A DNA stretch of 64,000 nt from a virus, in IMG/VR virus record IMGVR_UViG_3300027724_000010, positions 5,815 to 69,814 of that record, one strand, 5' to 3'. Below, in pieces: positions 5,782-55,763 of this stretch (positions within the stretch are counted from its first letter, which is position 1; each line of letters starts with the position of its first letter). A model generated the notes under the pieces. That model saw only the letters and a list, made by a program, of their open reading frames with translations, did no database searches and was not told the DNA's origin. Position numbers and translations under genes: made by a program.

Positions 5782-5832
5782 TTTATTAAAGTTTGTGTTG
5801 TTATTTCTAAAGCATATAATGTAGCATCTTCA

Positions 5833-6099
5833 TTATTTATCATCATAAGTAATTTTATAAGTAGAATTTAATGTTTTAAAAGTATTATCATCTATAACTT
5901 CTATTACCACAGATGTTATTAAATCTCCTACATAACATGATTGACCTATTACAGGTCTTTGTATTATTACACCATATGATTTTCTACCTATATTAATACC
6001 ATTAGGATGGTTATTATTAAATTTATTATCTTCTATTTTTTCTAAAGTAGCAAATTTAAATTTTGATAAATCTATTATTGTTTTTTCTATTTTACTCAT
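5833..6099 (-). CDS. hypothetical protein
   Basis: 88-aa ORF in the co-directional gene string. Confidence 0.5.
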   Translation of the reverse strand: MSKIEKTIIDLSKFKFATLEKIEDNKFNNNHPNGINIGRKSYGVIIQRPVIGQSCYVGDLITSVVIEVIDDNTFKTLNSTYKITYDDK

Positions 6100-9000: not shown

Positions 9001-9243
9001 TCATTTTTTAAATATTTGATTATTTTTAGCTATAAAACTTAATATCTCATAATCTTTTTCTACTACTTTTTCCCAGAACTCAGGATTATTTTCTACTTGT
9101 ATACATAAAATCTTATAATGGTAATAACCTATACAATCAGGATTATAATCTATATCATCTTTATCTTTTTTAGTAACTAACATACCTACTTTCCAATCTT
9201 TAGGTAAAGATGGATACCATTTTTTTAATTTATAACTACTCAT
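9001..9243 (-). CDS. hypothetical protein
   Basis: 80-aa ORF overlapping the upstream gene by 8 nt. Confidence 0.45.
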   Translation of the reverse strand: MSSYKLKKWYPSLPKDWKVGMLVTKKDKDDIDYNPDCIGYYHYKILCIQVENNPEFWEKVVEKDYEILSFIAKNNQIFKK

Positions 9244-9967
9244 ATTTTTTATTAAATTTATCTAAAATTTCTAATTGATAATCATCTAGTTTACTTCTAA
9301 CATAATCTATATCATCTTTAGTAAGATCATTATTAATATGATTACTAAGTTCTCCTATAATACTAGCATTAGTATCTGTATCTCCACCTATCTTTACAAT
9401 CTGTTCTATAAGTTTTTGTGTTACAGGGTGTTTTTGTGAATTATAAATAGCAGAAATTATTGTTAAAGTGTCCATAGCATTTATACAAAACTTATTTAGT
9501 ATTGGTGCTCCCATAAAATTTACTTGTTTAAACACATACATAAAATATAACAAATAAGCTGCTCGTATTGAATCTTTATGATTATGAGTACAAATTACAG
9601 AGTCTTGTATTAAACTTTTACTATACATTGCTGGAGCTAACCTCATTAAACATCCATTACCATAACTAGTTATATAAGCTTCTGGATGATTTTCACACCA
9701 TTTAGCAAAATTATCACCATATCCTGGACTACCATCATCATCAGTATTAGGATATAGATGATACCACTTTTTATAAGCTTCTGCAAAAGGTATATCATGT
9801 AATACAGCATCAGCACTAGCTAGTGTCATTATACTGTCATCTGTAATATGCGAATTAGGATTATGTAAGTTAAATTCACTATAATCACCTTTATATTTAA
9901 ATTCATAAGGTTGTCCTGCTAAATCACCTAATATAGCACCATAAAGTTTATTTATACATAAAGACAT
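9236..9967 (-). CDS. ADP-ribosylglycohydrolase (DraG/ARH family)
   Basis: N-terminal YGAILGDLAGQPYEF and overall size/layout typical of ARH-fold hydrolases; C-terminal GGDTDTNASIIG matches the ARH Mg-binding acidic motif. Confidence 0.7.
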   Translation of the reverse strand: MSLCINKLYGAILGDLAGQPYEFKYKGDYSEFNLHNPNSHITDDSIMTLASADAVLHDIPFAEAYKKWYHLYPNTDDDGSPGYGDNFAKWCENHPEAYITSYGNGCLMRLAPAMYSKSLIQDSVICTHNHKDSIRAAYLLYFMYVFKQVNFMGAPILNKFCINAMDTLTIISAIYNSQKHPVTQKLIEQIVKIGGDTDTNASIIGELSNHINNDLTKDDIDYVRSKLDDYQLEILDKFNKKYE

Positions 9968-12000: not shown

Positions 12001-12465
12001 TTATTTATTTTCGTAATTAAATTTTTTATATTTTTTAAGCTTTAACGTTTTTATTTTATAACTATCCATTTGTTTAGCTAAATTTACTAAACCAAAATTT
12101 ATAGCACCTTGTATTATACAATTAAGATAATCAGGTGTTGGTAACCTATCAAGATGATCGTGATATAAACTCATATTTTCAATATATACACAAGCTATTT
12201 CACTATCTATTATAAAATGTTGTTTTTCATAAAATGCTTCAAACATATCTAGCCTTTTATGTTGTGTAGGTGTTAATATATATAATATACCTTCAACAAT
12301 ATTACCTTTATTTGGTCTTATATCTGCATAACCACGTGGAGTTATATACAACTCATAATCTACAAGGTTGTATTTACCAAAAACTTCTACTTTACCAACT
12401 CTAGCTTCTAAACGATCTATAAGTAGATTAGATCCGTAAGCGAAATACAATAATCTTTGCATCAT
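12001..12465 (-). CDS. gamma-glutamyl cyclotransferase-like (GGCT/AIG2 fold) protein
   Basis: N-terminal YFAYGSNL motif characteristic of GGCT/AIG2. Confidence 0.7.
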   Translation of the reverse strand: MMQRLLYFAYGSNLLIDRLEARVGKVEVFGKYNLVDYELYITPRGYADIRPNKGNIVEGILYILTPTQHKRLDMFEAFYEKQHFIIDSEIACVYIENMSLYHDHLDRLPTPDYLNCIIQGAINFGLVNLAKQMDSYKIKTLKLKKYKKFNYENK

Positions 12466-12944
12466 TTGTTATAAATTACAACTGTAACATCACAGTCTTT
12501 TAATTCTTGTTTAATAAGAAGTTTAACTACATCCCAATCGCCGCCTGCAATACCACATCCTATTTGCGGTAATCCTATATGCTTACCTTTAAATTCATGA
12601 TTCATTTTACGTAAACATAATGTTAAAGCTTCATAATCTAAATTAGGTCCTAGCTGATATTGTGTGTAAGCATTTACAACTACTACTCTTGGATGTATTA
12701 TTTCATCATTTATAAATTTGTAATATTCTCTATAACTTATTCTACCTAATTTATTGATATCTCCTTTAAGCATTGGTAATTCTAATGGATATTTTCTAAA
12801 ATTATTAGTATCAAATATATCACTCATTTGTTTAGCTATACCAGCACCTTGTAAACAAAAACAGTTCGTTCCATGTGCTATAACATCAAAAGAGCCTGCA
12901 AGCGCAAGCTCTATTAAATTTCCATCTATTTCTCTATATTGCAT
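12462..12944 (-). CDS. macro-domain-like protein (ADP-ribose binding/processing)
   Basis: HGTNCF…GAGIAKQ glycine-rich loop and ~160-aa size consistent with a macro domain; divergent. Confidence 0.5.
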   Translation of the reverse strand: MQYREIDGNLIELALAGSFDVIAHGTNCFCLQGAGIAKQMSDIFDTNNFRKYPLELPMLKGDINKLGRISYREYYKFINDEIIHPRVVVVNAYTQYQLGPNLDYEALTLCLRKMNHEFKGKHIGLPQIGCGIAGGDWDVVKLLIKQELKDCDVTVVIYNK

Positions 12945-14550: not shown

Positions 14551-15201
14551 TTATTTCAGAATATTTTCTAATTTATCTTTTCTTTCTGAATATAATAAAT
14601 CAGGATCAACAATATCATAAACATGATATTTTACATTTTCTGTTTCTCCTTTTCTATACTTCTTAATAAGTTTCATATTATCCTGAAAACCTAATCCATG
14701 AGCGTATAATTCTCCATCTAAAATAATATCTTGTGGAGTAATTTGTAATAATTCTTTTTGAATATGTTCCATATTTTCAATAATTCTACCATCTCTAGAG
14801 ATTAATTTAGGAACTCTTCCATCAGCGTATATATGAGCTAAACAACGCATACCATCTAACTTTGGTTGTACAAAACAATTATTCCAATCTATTTTGTGTG
14901 CTTCGTCTTTATAAGATTTAGCTAGCATTGGTAGTTGTACTGTATTATCTTCTGCTTCTTTTTCTGTTAAAAAATATCCTTCTTGTAACTTAGAAGCAAT
15001 TATAGAATTAACTTCTAATACTGCTTGTTGTTCTGCTGTAGTAGCGTTAGCTTTACCTACATTTTTAGGTTTAGCAACTTTAGTATGTTCTACTTCATTT
15101 GCTGTACCAACCATACCAGAACGCTGTATAATACTACTACCATTTGCTATTACATTTAAGTATCTAGTATTTCCATGACTATCTTTACGATATATTATCA
15201 T
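14551..15201 (-). CDS. ATP-dependent DNA ligase, N-terminal fragment (adenylation domain motifs I-IIIa)
   Basis: KLDGMRC (motif I KxDGxR), ILDGELY (motif III) and YHVYDI (motif IIIa). Confidence 0.8.
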   Translation of the reverse strand: MIIYRKDSHGNTRYLNVIANGSSIIQRSGMVGTANEVEHTKVAKPKNVGKANATTAEQQAVLEVNSIIASKLQEGYFLTEKEAEDNTVQLPMLAKSYKDEAHKIDWNNCFVQPKLDGMRCLAHIYADGRVPKLISRDGRIIENMEHIQKELLQITPQDIILDGELYAHGLGFQDNMKLIKKYRKGETENVKYHVYDIVDPDLLYSERKDKLENILK

Positions 15202-54301: not shown

Positions 54302-54339
54302 TATTAAAATTTTATATTAAAAAAAATATACTATAAGAA

Positions 54340-54378
54340 TCTATCCGTAGCGGATTGACTCGGATTCGAACCGAGAGT
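54340..54378 (-). ncRNA. tRNA 3'-half-like element (T-arm plus a second hairpin); not a complete tRNA
   Basis: minus-sense CTCGG-TTCGAAT-CCGAG T-arm followed by an ATCCG-CTA-CGGAT hairpin; no matching 5' acceptor strand, D-arm or anticodon arm found. Confidence 0.3.
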
Positions 54379-54411
54379 AACCATTTGTTATTTATTATGA
54401 GTATATTAAGG

Positions 54412-54517
54412 TAAAGCAGATGGGACTCGAACCCACGACCACGGCTTTATCAGTGCTGTTAAATTATTATAAGTAGATATTCTACTATACGTGCTCTACC
54501 AGCTGAGCTACTGCTTT
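54412..54517 (-). tRNA. tRNA-like gene with a ~35-nt insertion between the D-arm and anticodon arm; anticodon-loop-like CUGAUAA (Ile GAU-like); non-canonical
   Basis: acceptor AAAGCAG/CTGCTTT, D-arm GCTC-AGCTGGTA-GAGC and T-arm GTGGG-TTCGAGT-CCCAT are all canonical; the middle is 56 nt instead of ~22 and the anticodon stem is weak. Confidence 0.35.
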
Positions 54518-54559
54518 ATTAAAATACACTATTATTAGTCTAACCAATTGACGTACTAT

Positions 54560-54592
54560 CCATGCGGATTGTATAGGACTTGAACCTATCTT
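54560..54592 (-). ncRNA. tRNA 3'-half-like element (T-arm plus a second hairpin), driven by the conserved promoter copy 1
   Basis: minus-sense ATAGG-TTCAAGT-CCTAT T-arm followed by ATCC-GCAT-GGAT; the 3' tail CAATCCGC is shared with the element at 54340. Confidence 0.3.
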
Positions 54593-54606
54593 GCTCGAAA
54601 GCTATT

Positions 54607-54649
54607 AGTTATTATAAGTGTATTATTTGTATCTTTGTCAGATGCGAGG
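54607..54649 (-). promoter_or_regulatory. sigma70-like promoter, copy 1 of a conserved 43-nt element
   Basis: minus-sense CCTCGCATCTGACAAAGATACAAATAATACACTTATAATAACT has a -35-like CTGACA, ~18-nt spacer and -10 TATAAT; 42/43 identical to 55721-55763. Confidence 0.5.
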
Positions 54650-54758
54650 GGAGTACAGGATTCGAACCTGTGTTACGAGCACCCAAAGCTATTTTAAAGT
54701 ATTATAAGTACGTAAACATACTGTATATACGCGTCCTAAACCACTAGACGAACTCCCC
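54646..54758 (-). tRNA. tRNA-like gene with a ~39-nt insertion between the D-arm and anticodon arm; anticodon-loop-like UUUGGGU (Pro UGG-like); non-canonical
   Basis: acceptor GGGGAGT/ACTCCCC, D-arm GTCT-AGTGGTTTA-GGAC and T-arm ACAGG-TTCGAAT-CCTGT are canonical; the insert is related to that of the 54412 element (CGTATA…TACTTATAATAMTTTAA). Confidence 0.35.
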
Positions 54759-54977
54759 AAAAAATCATACTATATCTACAAATTAAAAGTCTGTTGCTGA
54801 AACCAGCTTAAGTTATTATAAGTATGATTATTTCTTAATTATTACTGAACATTACACAATTACTCTTTTCTATCTCTCCAGTATCTACATTAAGTGTAAT
54901 TACAACTGGTAATAATTTTGTTATTTTTTTACCTGTTACTGTCATGTAACAAGGTATATTTGCTTTTAAAGCATCCA

Positions 54978-55181
54978 TTATATCCTGGTTTTTAAAGTCT
55001 CTATTTCTTTTTTGATACGTTTTATATCCTTTTCTGATAATGGTGTACTAATAACAGCTATTTTATTACTGTTAGTAATATCTTTTATTCTGTTAACTTT
55101 AACACCAGATTTTAATTGATTTTCTAATCTATCAATTACTAATCTTCTTCTACCAATTGTTTTTACGGATTTGTTTATCAT
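54978..55181 (-). CDS. hypothetical small basic protein
   Basis: 67-aa ORF; ATGA overlap with the upstream gene. Confidence 0.45.
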   Translation of the reverse strand: MINKSVKTIGRRRLVIDRLENQLKSGVKVNRIKDITNSNKIAVISTPLSEKDIKRIKKEIETLKTRI

Positions 55182-55648
55182 GATAATAATTTGTTAGTGT
55201 CTGTTAAAAAAGTAGCTATAAAATTTCTTTCTTTAGTAGTTAAATTAAGTAACTCCTTAATTATCCACTGTATTGGTTGTAAATCTGGAGTAACTTTACC
55301 AGTTTCTTTAGATTTATGTTGATTTTTAACATTACTTTTAGTAAATCCATTTTTAGAACCAACCGTTATCATGGTATCTTGTTTCTTTAAAGTTTGATAA
55401 TAATATGCATTTATATTCTCAACTTTTCTATGTGGTAATTTTTCAGCTGCTATTACAAATGCATACTGTAAATTGTTGGGATAATCTGCTACACATTTTT
55501 TAATAATAACTCTTTCCCATTCTGCATACGGAATTCTTACTTGTTTTACTCCACTTTCTTGCTTCATTGTAAATTTGTTTAAATGTTTAAATAATGCGGA
55601 AAACAGAGGTCGTGATCCCCATACCTTACAGTACCAACACTTTAGCAA
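55178..55648 (-). CDS. hypothetical protein; the true start is probably the internal ATG at ~55568 (MKQESGVKQ…), since the annotated 5' end runs into a structured non-coding leader
   Basis: 156-aa ORF whose first ~27 codons lie in a GC-rich hairpin region. Confidence 0.55.
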   Translation of the reverse strand: MLKCWYCKVWGSRPLFSALFKHLNKFTMKQESGVKQVRIPYAEWERVIIKKCVADYPNNLQYAFVIAAEKLPHRKVENINAYYYQTLKKQDTMITVGSKNGFTKSNVKNQHKSKETGKVTPDLQPIQWIIKELLNLTTKERNFIATFLTDTNKLLS

Positions 55649-55700
55649 AGTGTGCTCACCCTGGTGAGTTTGCTTTCCGTTAAAAACACACTAATATTAA
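55590..55700 (-). promoter_or_regulatory. structured 5' leader / candidate cis-regulatory RNA downstream of promoter copy 2
   Basis: minus-sense CGGAAAGCA…TGTTTTCCG closing helix enclosing hairpins CTCACC-AGG-GTGAG and CACTTTGC-TAAAG-TGTTGG (CACTTTG/TAAAGTG), locally GC-rich. Confidence 0.35.
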
Positions 55701-55720
55701 TTTCCCTAAATCTTTTTATG

Positions 55721-55763
55721 AGTTATTATAAGTGTGTTATTTGTATCTTTGTCAGATGCGAGG
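55721..55763 (-). promoter_or_regulatory. sigma70-like promoter, copy 2 of the conserved 43-nt element
   Basis: same CTGACA-N18-TATAAT arrangement; overlaps the stop codon of the small Zn-ribbon ORF. Confidence 0.5.

Follow-up and report, generated by a model that had tools for sequence, protein, structure and literature searches.

We analyzed a 64,000-nucleotide (nt) stretch of viral DNA, positions 5,815 to 69,814 of the IMG/VR record IMGVR_UViG_3300027724_000010 (hereafter the window), which is phage-like, has ~26% GC, and carries nearly all of its genes on the minus strand. Three sites in the window share a hairpin, and we found that they probably represent two distinct RNA genes with a common 17-nt hairpin module. 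One is a tRNA-like gene at 55597-55678, most likely a non-standard serine tRNA of the 8/4 class, and the other is a separate RNA family with copies at 63185-63303 and 63534-63669 (all on the minus strand). Members of this distal family fold into a three-way junction with a loop-tail pseudoknot and were identified in well over 100 uncultured phage contigs.

The minus strand of the window carried the pattern AACTCAC-N(1-10)-AGGGTGAGCA at exactly three sites (55653-55670, 63270-63292, and 63636-63658) and the plus strand at none, and 100 dinucleotide-preserving shuffles gave 0 matches; the 9-mer taken alone was not significant. The two distal sites lie within a 47-nt repeat (family D4; 63261-63307 versus 63627-63673, 96% identity). 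A preliminary description of the window had read the region 55590-55700 as a structured 5′ leader and the three hairpins as copies of one element, perhaps a protein-binding operator, a riboswitch-like element, or a processing site. Its statements on the sequence of 55590-55700 and of the distal hairpins were all correct on re-reading: on the minus strand from 55690 to 55590, a closing helix CGGAAAGCA/UGUUUUCCG surrounds CUCAC-CAGG-GUGAG and the CACUUUGCUAAAGUG hairpin. Two more hairpins in the same element, GUACU-GUAA-GGUAU and GGGG-AUCACGA-CCUC, had been overlooked. The notion of a repeated, orientation-specific stem-loop survives insofar as these are minus-strand RNA structures built on a true RNA helix, but they are not three copies of one regulatory stem-loop.

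The distal RNAs are 119 nt (copy 1) and 136 nt (copy 2) in length. The family model R1 scored 37.4 bits on the 5′ part of copy 1 (66.6 bits over the full length in identical relatives) and 38.6 bits on copy 2, which is a member of alignment A1; both copies have every family element (E ~ 1e-9 with R1), and at least five other samples contain the two in identical form. Between them lies an open reading frame (ORF) of 47 amino acids (63307-63450, minus strand), whose exact protein was found in 7 contigs from other samples. In window minus-strand sense, the family consensus reads (U)UAAUG-CAC, CA(C/U)AA or CAUU, the helix B 5′ strand, UUCC(A/C)AAGG, the helix B 3′ strand, CAG, a variable interior, CUG, A, GUGCA, GA, and (G/U)GG. 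Helix A (UGCAC/GUGCA) closes the three-way junction (63300-63296/63194-63190 in copy 1 and 63666-63662/63543-63539 in copy 2), helix B (63290-63286/63276-63272 and 63656-63652/63642-63638) carries the conserved loop UUCC(A/C)AAGG, and helix C (63271-63262/63205-63196 and 63637-63628/63554-63545) is variable in length. The pseudoknot joins CC(A/C) of the helix B loop to the 3′ tail (U/G)GG (63283-63281/63187-63185 and 63649-63647/63536-63534). Some 30 nucleotides in the junctions and loops are near-invariant, and the conserved segments are AAUG, UUCC-AAGG, and CUGA...AGA-GG.

These pairings are well supported by covariation. In both covariation alignments, the interior of helix C was swapped for GAAA, an engineered shortening; paired cells amounted to 97.5% and 97.3% in the two alignments, compared with 27-49% when partners were slid, and the observed covariation score was reached by 0 of 500 shuffles. 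Compensatory changes were found at 3 of 5 pairs in helix A, 7 of 10 in helix C, and all 5 in helix B, which establishes the distal hairpin of the preliminary description as a genuine RNA helix. The pseudoknot pair was C-G in 29 sequences and A-U in 12 in the first alignment, with 1 unpaired, and C-G in 46 and A-U in 8 in the second, where it was 100% paired. Sequences with identical interiors displayed different pseudoknot states (L002 versus L065, L106, and L185; L008 versus L132), indicating that compensation arose repeatedly. All four pairings thus show compensatory changes. U.G wobbles settled the strand of the RNA. We also considered a T7-like or N4-like promoter as an explanation for the conserved 5′ segment and discarded it: both strands of helices A and B covary, and the segment is therefore transcribed and folded. 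A 12-codon ORF (AUG CAC CAC AAC ...) was likewise discarded, given that variants of helix B and the linker bring stops and frameshifts yet keep the pairing.

Exact matches to the distal motif were present in 68 IMG/VR contigs. Wider scans first freed helix B and later helix A together with helix B, each in both strands, this last scan yielding at least 120 stretches, and the family now comprises at least 141 unique RNAs in IMG/VR (84-214 nt among the matches listed). Over the distal region, Rfam 15 held no match to the family at gathering score or E ≤ 10. The family had no match in 50,697 GenBank phage records, nor was one obtained when the window regions were compared as DNA with GenBank phages in near and distant modes, and among the genomes of 185,579 species there were only two family matches, both in metagenome-bin contigs. 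The family's signature strings were not found in the literature searched. The distal family is apparently new to description, and it may already be among the 8,495 unnamed candidate structured RNAs reported from IMG/VR by Fremin et al. (PMC10690425). Proteins of the window showed only 25-45% identity to a few proteins of the family loci; conservation of the RNA thus greatly exceeds that of its host genomes. RNAs with such a profile, here near-invariant junctions and a covarying pseudoknot maintained across this many versions and such divergent phages, have earlier led to new ribozymes and riboswitches. The occurrence of two near-identical copies is shared with other phages (L078 and L079, both in IMGVR_UViG_3300036770_002019, and L124). 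One 86.7-kb contig carries family copies at both of its ends, and several other contigs end within a few hundred nt of a family RNA, consistent with tandem copies interrupting assemblies.

Genomic neighborhoods of the family were strongly oriented. The recurrent upstream gene families, in the orientation of the RNA, were all on the opposite strand, including the large terminase 3-6 kb away, and the recurrent downstream gene families were all on the same strand; in distant crAss-like phages, the family RNA is usually found at the front of a block of small genes on its own strand. TerL was 32-34% identical to crAss-like phage terminases, and the window helicase was 29% identical to those of ~90-kb Flavobacterium phages. 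The ORFs immediately downstream were small and mutually unrelated, formed no dominant cluster, and began 19 to 365 nt from the RNA; some family members are followed by a TGnTATAAT box and then the next gene. In 22 of 73 loci, tRNA genes were located 0.8-5.8 kb downstream of the RNA, as they are in the window. No protein cluster accompanied the RNA in more than 16 of the 73 loci (6 kb on either side), and the annotated ones were terminase and exonuclease. Upstream of the RNA we found no conserved sequence and no fixed promoter; conservation starts sharply at UUAAUG and stops after the GG tail. Terminator-like signals were not enriched 3′ of the RNA (8 of 133 members, 6%, versus 12% of control windows).

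In the window itself, the arrangement is RNA, 47-amino-acid ORF, RNA, and then ~650 nt free of ORFs. This last stretch, downstream of copy 1 (62540-63185, minus strand), has no ORF of at least 40 amino acids on either strand, a GC content slightly above that of its surroundings, and only faint Rfam noise, and it may encode a further non-coding RNA. A 99.6% identical relative (L193; L193:3695) diverges wholly upstream of window position 63756 (~63757), about 85 nt 5′ of copy 2, marking another recombination junction, and has a divergent gene junction ~1-1.6 kb upstream.

The most likely role of the family in environmental crAss-like phages, in our view, is that of a self-contained module situated at the 5′ border of early transcription units. 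Such a module would be transcribed within longer RNAs, where its compact pseudoknotted fold may define or protect the 5′ end of early RNAs; alternatively, the RNA might accumulate as a stable and abundant early RNA. A precedent for the latter comes from phage phi14:2, in which two intergenic regions, g004-g005 and g005-g006, give rise to very abundant, early, and persistent RNAs of unexplained function, and in which early transcripts are made by the virion RNA polymerase without a common upstream motif (Drobysheva et al., bioRxiv 10.1101/2020.03.07.982082). Phi14:2 and the window share two non-coding stretches around a small gene at the head of an early same-direction block, as well as the lack of a common upstream promoter motif. 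They differ in that there is no detectable homology of sequence or structure, and in that the phi14:2 RNAs are longer. Two observations sit poorly with the 5′ module. A terminator T-run abuts the 5′ edge of the RNA in 11 of 133 members (~8%), which is awkward for a simple read-through leader, and phi14:2 has no detectable family member (best R1 score 8.7 bits), so the parallel with that phage is one of organization. Other candidate analogues are the exonuclease-resistant RNAs (xrRNAs) of flaviviruses and bacterial 5′ stabilizer structures. With these the family shares a three-way junction whose hairpin loop pairs with sequence immediately 3′ of the closing helix, on the 5′ side of the RNA that it could protect; there is no homology, the 5′-end pseudoknot typical of xrRNAs is not evident, and a ring-like topology and nuclease resistance would be candidate features of the family. 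Its position at the start of the crAss-like early gene block makes the family a testable candidate for organizing or stabilizing the first transcripts.

The main rival to the 5′ module, and an unlikely though serious one, is that the family punctuates an early polycistronic RNA, either as a self-cleaving ribozyme or as a substrate for RNase P or a different nuclease, which would keep the processing-site role of the preliminary description possible for the distal copies. A catalytic or processed RNA would account for the near-invariant junction and loop nucleotides set against a peripheral helix C of variable length, for the pseudoknot, for the abrupt 5′ edge of conservation with arbitrary sequence upstream, and for tandem copies between small genes. 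On the other hand, no Rfam ribozyme class matched the distal region (gathering score, E ≤ 10), and this covers the hammerhead, hepatitis delta virus (HDV)-like, twister, twister-sister, pistol, hatchet, and hairpin classes; a comparison of topologies revealed neither an HDV-like P3 helix, which led us to reject an HDV-like fold, nor the CUGANGA/GAAA core of a hammerhead. Much further down in probability is a ligand-sensing riboswitch for the downstream genes, a very unlikely reading that draws on the position of a conserved pseudoknotted three-way junction ahead of ORFs. The downstream ORFs encode unrelated small proteins at widely varying distances, some of them behind a TGnTATAAT box of their own, and we saw no conserved 3′ expression platform or terminator, nor any conserved alternative pairing that would involve a terminator or a ribosome-binding site. 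For the distal copies, the riboswitch and operator readings of the preliminary description are accordingly disfavored. The data also argue against a stand-alone terminated small RNA and against a guide RNA with a partner protein, such as a retron, bridge RNA, or omega RNA, as there is no obligate adjacent gene for a reverse transcriptase, recombinase, or nuclease.

The third site, at 55.6 kb, belongs to a different RNA, which forms a 49% GC island in a surrounding region of ~27% GC. A four-arm cloverleaf was both the minimum free energy and the centroid structure of the exact 82 nt from 55678 to 55597, up to G73 (z = -2.07; 8 of 200 shuffles fold as well). The acceptor stem GGAAAGCA/UGUUUUCC has 8 base pairs (bp) and the T stem GGGG/CCUC has 4 bp, for a sum of 12 bp. 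The D-arm CUCAC-CAGG-GUGAG (55655-55668), which is the first hairpin of the preliminary description, has a long 5-bp stem and a tetraloop; the anticodon arm ACACU-UUGCUAA-AGUGU (55637-55653) presents the anticodon GCU at 55646-55644; and the long variable arm (V-arm) GUACU-GUAA-GGUAU (55621-55634) has 5 bp and a GNRA loop, GUAA. The T-arm (55606-55620) carries the loop AUCACGA, and the acceptor 3′ strand leads directly into G73. The five helices, which comprise 27 base pairs, are all intact and free of mismatches, and U33, A37, U55, C56, and G73 are all in place. The fold is strand-specific, because four G.U pairs turn into A.C mismatches on the plus strand; two of these are in the V-arm and make it specific to the minus strand, and the plus-strand fold loses this arm together with part of the closing helix.

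Standard tools do not call this gene. Default ARAGORN did not report it; ARAGORN with -ps90 -i (90%, intron mode) or -ps80 predicted a tRNA-Ser(gct) at 55596-55678, and the drawing showed the same D-arm and V-arm as the fold, acceptor and T stems of 8 and 4 bp, and a canonical anticodon loop. As relaxed ARAGORN makes many false calls (145 versus 80 in 1.87 Mb), the call taken alone is weak evidence and the case is built on architecture. Mukai et al. (2017, NAR 45:2776, PMC5389517) described tRNAs in which a 12-bp acceptor branch is split 8/4 or 9/3, the D-arm resembles that of tRNA-Sec (“long stem and tetraloop”), the V-arm is long, and the discriminator is G73 or U73, and found that (8/4) tRNA-Ser genes with serine anticodons occur in bacteriophage tRNA clusters. 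Matched to this published description of (8/4) tRNA-Ser and allo-tRNAs, the window element has the 12-bp 8/4 branch, the Sec-like D-arm, the long V-arm, G73, and a serine anticodon in the 7-nt loop UUGCUAA; like them, it is in a phage tRNA-gene neighborhood and is overlooked by standard tRNA finders. It differs in its T-loop, in the possibility of a 9/4 reading, and in host range: unlike the published phage cases, which were alpha-proteobacterial or marine, the present phage looks crAss-like and would infect Bacteroidota. On this architectural match, the element is most likely a non-standard 8/4-class serine tRNA gene, a member of a known rare class. Its anticodon would suit the phage, in which AGU and AGC make up 38% of Ser codons, just as the tRNA-Leu(UAA) gene nearby (57775-57858; ARAGORN and Rfam) fits the 69% usage of UUA. 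The tRNA would be cut from its transcript and then receive CCA, the host SerRS may charge it via the V-arm and G73, and it would decode AGU and AGC, for which codon usage is indirect support. A tRNA of this kind, invisible to default ARAGORN and Rfam, suggests that phage tRNA repertoires, and hence inferences on codon supply and recoding, are undercounted. Undetected divergent tRNAs in crAss-like phages have reportedly been postulated explicitly by Yutin et al.

The preliminary description had instead placed the element in the 5′ leader of an ORF, 55178-55648, with an ATG start. The listed start of this ORF is a TTG that lies within the element, and the plausible one is an ATG at 55567, 29 nt downstream of the element. 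Upstream, a promoter-like cassette at 55717-55763 (minus strand; CTGACA at 55755-55750, a 19-nt spacer, and TATAAT at 55730-55725) lies ~30 nt from the element; it is a 47-nt repeat (family D3, 96% identity) with a second copy at 54603-54649, and it was omitted by our promoter scan because of its 19-nt spacer. We retrieved relatives of the locus through the neighboring ATPase gene, one such search giving no match. In a relative with 97% identical flanks (L095), the promoter leader (...ACTTATAATAACT.ATAAAAAGATTT...TTAATATTAGTGTGTTTTT) and the ORF start are kept and the slot holds a 268-amino-acid ORF; in another (L093, 84-89% identical), the promoter and ORF are kept and the slot is empty. Strains with an identical downstream ORF have an identical element. 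Since close relatives with the same promoter and ORF lack or replace it, the element is not a conserved leader, and the differing slot contents make it an accessory cassette behind a repeated promoter-like unit. A cis-acting leader (riboswitch, operator, or attenuator) controlling the ORF at 55178-55567 could be argued from the location of a highly structured element between a promoter-like box and an ORF start; this reading is largely refuted by the relatives, finds no Rfam cis-regulatory match in the Rfam/Infernal scan that the preliminary description had proposed, leaves a complete cloverleaf with a canonical anticodon loop to be explained, and is in our judgment extremely unlikely.

Considerably more credible, though still improbable, is that the element is derived from a tRNA but does not work as one, being a decaying pseudogene, a processing signal, or a decoy for host tRNA-targeting defenses. 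Several observations speak against a functional tRNA-Ser and, in part, for such an RNA. In the T-loop AUCACGA, A54 and C58 are non-canonical and the U54-A58 pair is missing, CCA is absent from the gene (the bases following G73 are CAU), the fold z-score is only about -2.1, and an additional C(-1)-G acceptor pair is possible, which would make the element 9/4 and tRNA-Sec-like. The covariance models Rfam RF00005 (tRNA) and RF01852 (tRNA-Sec) gave no match at gathering score, and none at E ≤ 10 in either 4.5 kb or the isolated 141 nt. We found no sequence-divergent homologue in IMG/VR, JGI metagenomes, or the loci searched (815,498 bases, in which R2, a single-sequence model of the element, also found none); the D-arm 17-mer had one chance match in IMG/VR, inside a GC-rich coding region (L069), and a metagenome scan with a D-arm plus anticodon-loop pattern gave 0 matches. 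Only identical copies were found, in other samples (L099 and L100), and the cloverleaf thus has no support from covariation. Furthermore, the element is dispensable, being absent from the closest relatives, and might thus be a pseudogene or a tRNA-like RNA without a role in translation, and the region around it is crowded with aberrant tRNA-like genes. Set against decay are the five intact helices without a mismatch, the retained key bases, the identity of the element across samples, and an anticodon that fits a heavily used codon, and we continue to favor the 8/4-class serine tRNA.

The shared hairpin remains to be placed between these two RNAs. The 17-nt identity AACUCAC...AGGGUGAGCA between the tRNA D-arm and helix B is far beyond chance, and CUCAC/GUGAG is the commonest version of helix B (78 of 141 among the members listed). 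Both RNAs also follow the same order of closing helix, A-rich linker, hairpin, and long helix. The identity could stem from common ancestry, from a local exchange of sequence, or from a partner common to both RNAs. It is doubtful, and somewhat less likely than either the ribozyme or the non-working tRNA, that the hairpin is a common recognition module, with one partner binding both RNAs or with the family RNA mimicking the acceptor/D-arm half of an 8/4 tRNA. The identity and the helix order would fit such a module, but the stem varies freely across the family, so the helix B sequence is not required there and is not what would be recognized; in addition, the AA linker is UU in many members, R1 does not score the 55.6-kb element, and no other phage with both elements was found among the loci searched. 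The family RNA has no T-arm or V-arm, and an origin of helix C from a tRNA was rejected, with T-loop-like motifs in just 3 of 141 interiors. Equally speculative is a broader scheme in which the family would be a new functional RNA class, a ribozyme or nuclease-blocking module that defines 5′ ends at the head of each early unit, built evolutionarily on the acceptor/D-arm half of an 8/4-type tRNA and a possible counterpart of the phi14:2 early non-coding RNAs. If true, this descent would account for the 17 nt that the family shares with the tRNA-Ser of the phage itself.

The promoter-like unit upstream of the 55.6-kb element is not confined to that locus. Sigma70-like cassettes (CTGACA-19-TATAAT, with the box (C/U)ACUUAUAAUAA) are located at 55717-55763, 54603-54649, 54808-54824, and 59061-59077 (minus strand), upstream of tRNA-like genes and small ORFs. 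The middle promoters of phi14:2 also resemble sigma70 promoters and are often located ahead of tRNA genes (Drobysheva et al., bioRxiv 10.1101/2020.03.07.982082). In the window, a slot that varies among strains and lies behind a repeated promoter suggests a cassette-type exchange of tRNA genes and ORFs, which could proceed by recombination between the promoter repeats. In T4-type phages, promoter-stem-loop cassettes (PeSLs; Arbiol et al. 2010) reportedly mediate modular gene shuffling. The window resembles them in having a slot with repeated promoter cassettes on its flanks and with cargo that changes among close strains (here a tRNA, a 268-amino-acid ORF, or nothing), and it differs in phage group and promoter sequence; recombination at the window repeats would be the corresponding event.

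Other tRNA-like genes in this region are also unusual. Two tRNA genes at 54647-54758 and 54412-54517 (minus strand) scored 40.4 and 45.9 bits with Rfam and were negative with default ARAGORN; another is at L095:149-265. Those in the window have inserts of 33-39 nt, which we read as lying between positions 28 and 29 of the anticodon stem, and removal of the inserts would give Pro(UGG)-like and Ile(GAU)-like tRNAs. The box UACUUAUAAUA is present in each insert and also forms the -10-like part of the repeated promoter. When the window is compared with L093, the bodies of the insert-bearing tRNAs show compensatory changes at 1-72, 28-42, 29-41, and the T stem, while the flanks of the inserts diverge and the anticodon loop of the second tRNA changes from CUGAUAA to UUUGUAA. 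Possible explanations for these inserts are introns, split genes that have an internal promoter, and an extra arm that is tolerated; no bacterial or phage mechanism for inserts this short at positions 28/29 is known to us.

In addition, 54524-54612 and 54330-54400 (minus strand) and L093:1672-1768 contain T-arm-like hairpins (GGUUCAAGUCC, GGUUCGAAUCC) immediately followed by an acceptor-like-strand hairpin, CAAUCCGC-N-(U/C)GGAUAG. The L093 version runs T-arm, AUCCAGC-A-CCA, UUUUC, GCUGAAU, and D-arm, that is, 3′ half, CCA, linker, and 5′ half, and in this order it resembles a circularly permuted tRNA gene; the folds of these T-arm-like and acceptor-like elements are statistically unconvincing (z = -0.7 to -2.2). 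Several contigs bearing the distal family also contain tRNA-like genes with a conserved Leu-like body, AGUCAGG...GCGGAAUGGUAGACGC...ACAGGUUCRAAUCCUGUCCUGACU, and with aberrant, highly variable anticodon and variable regions. These were detected with relaxed ARAGORN only (L001:7470-7566, L031:9435-9517, L089:5108-5202, L114:3407-3501, L131:8858-8946, L137:5606-5688, 5796-5880, and 6012-6095, and L159:10703-10798). Finally, the minus strand of the window encodes an RlaP-family “RNA repair pathway” nucleotidyltransferase (PF10127; 7404-8453), an ADP-ribosylglycohydrolase (9236-9967), a weak macro-domain protein (12462-12944), and an ATP-dependent ligase domain (14551-15201); given the unusual tRNA genes, these four genes may be relevant to tRNA repair or counter-defense.

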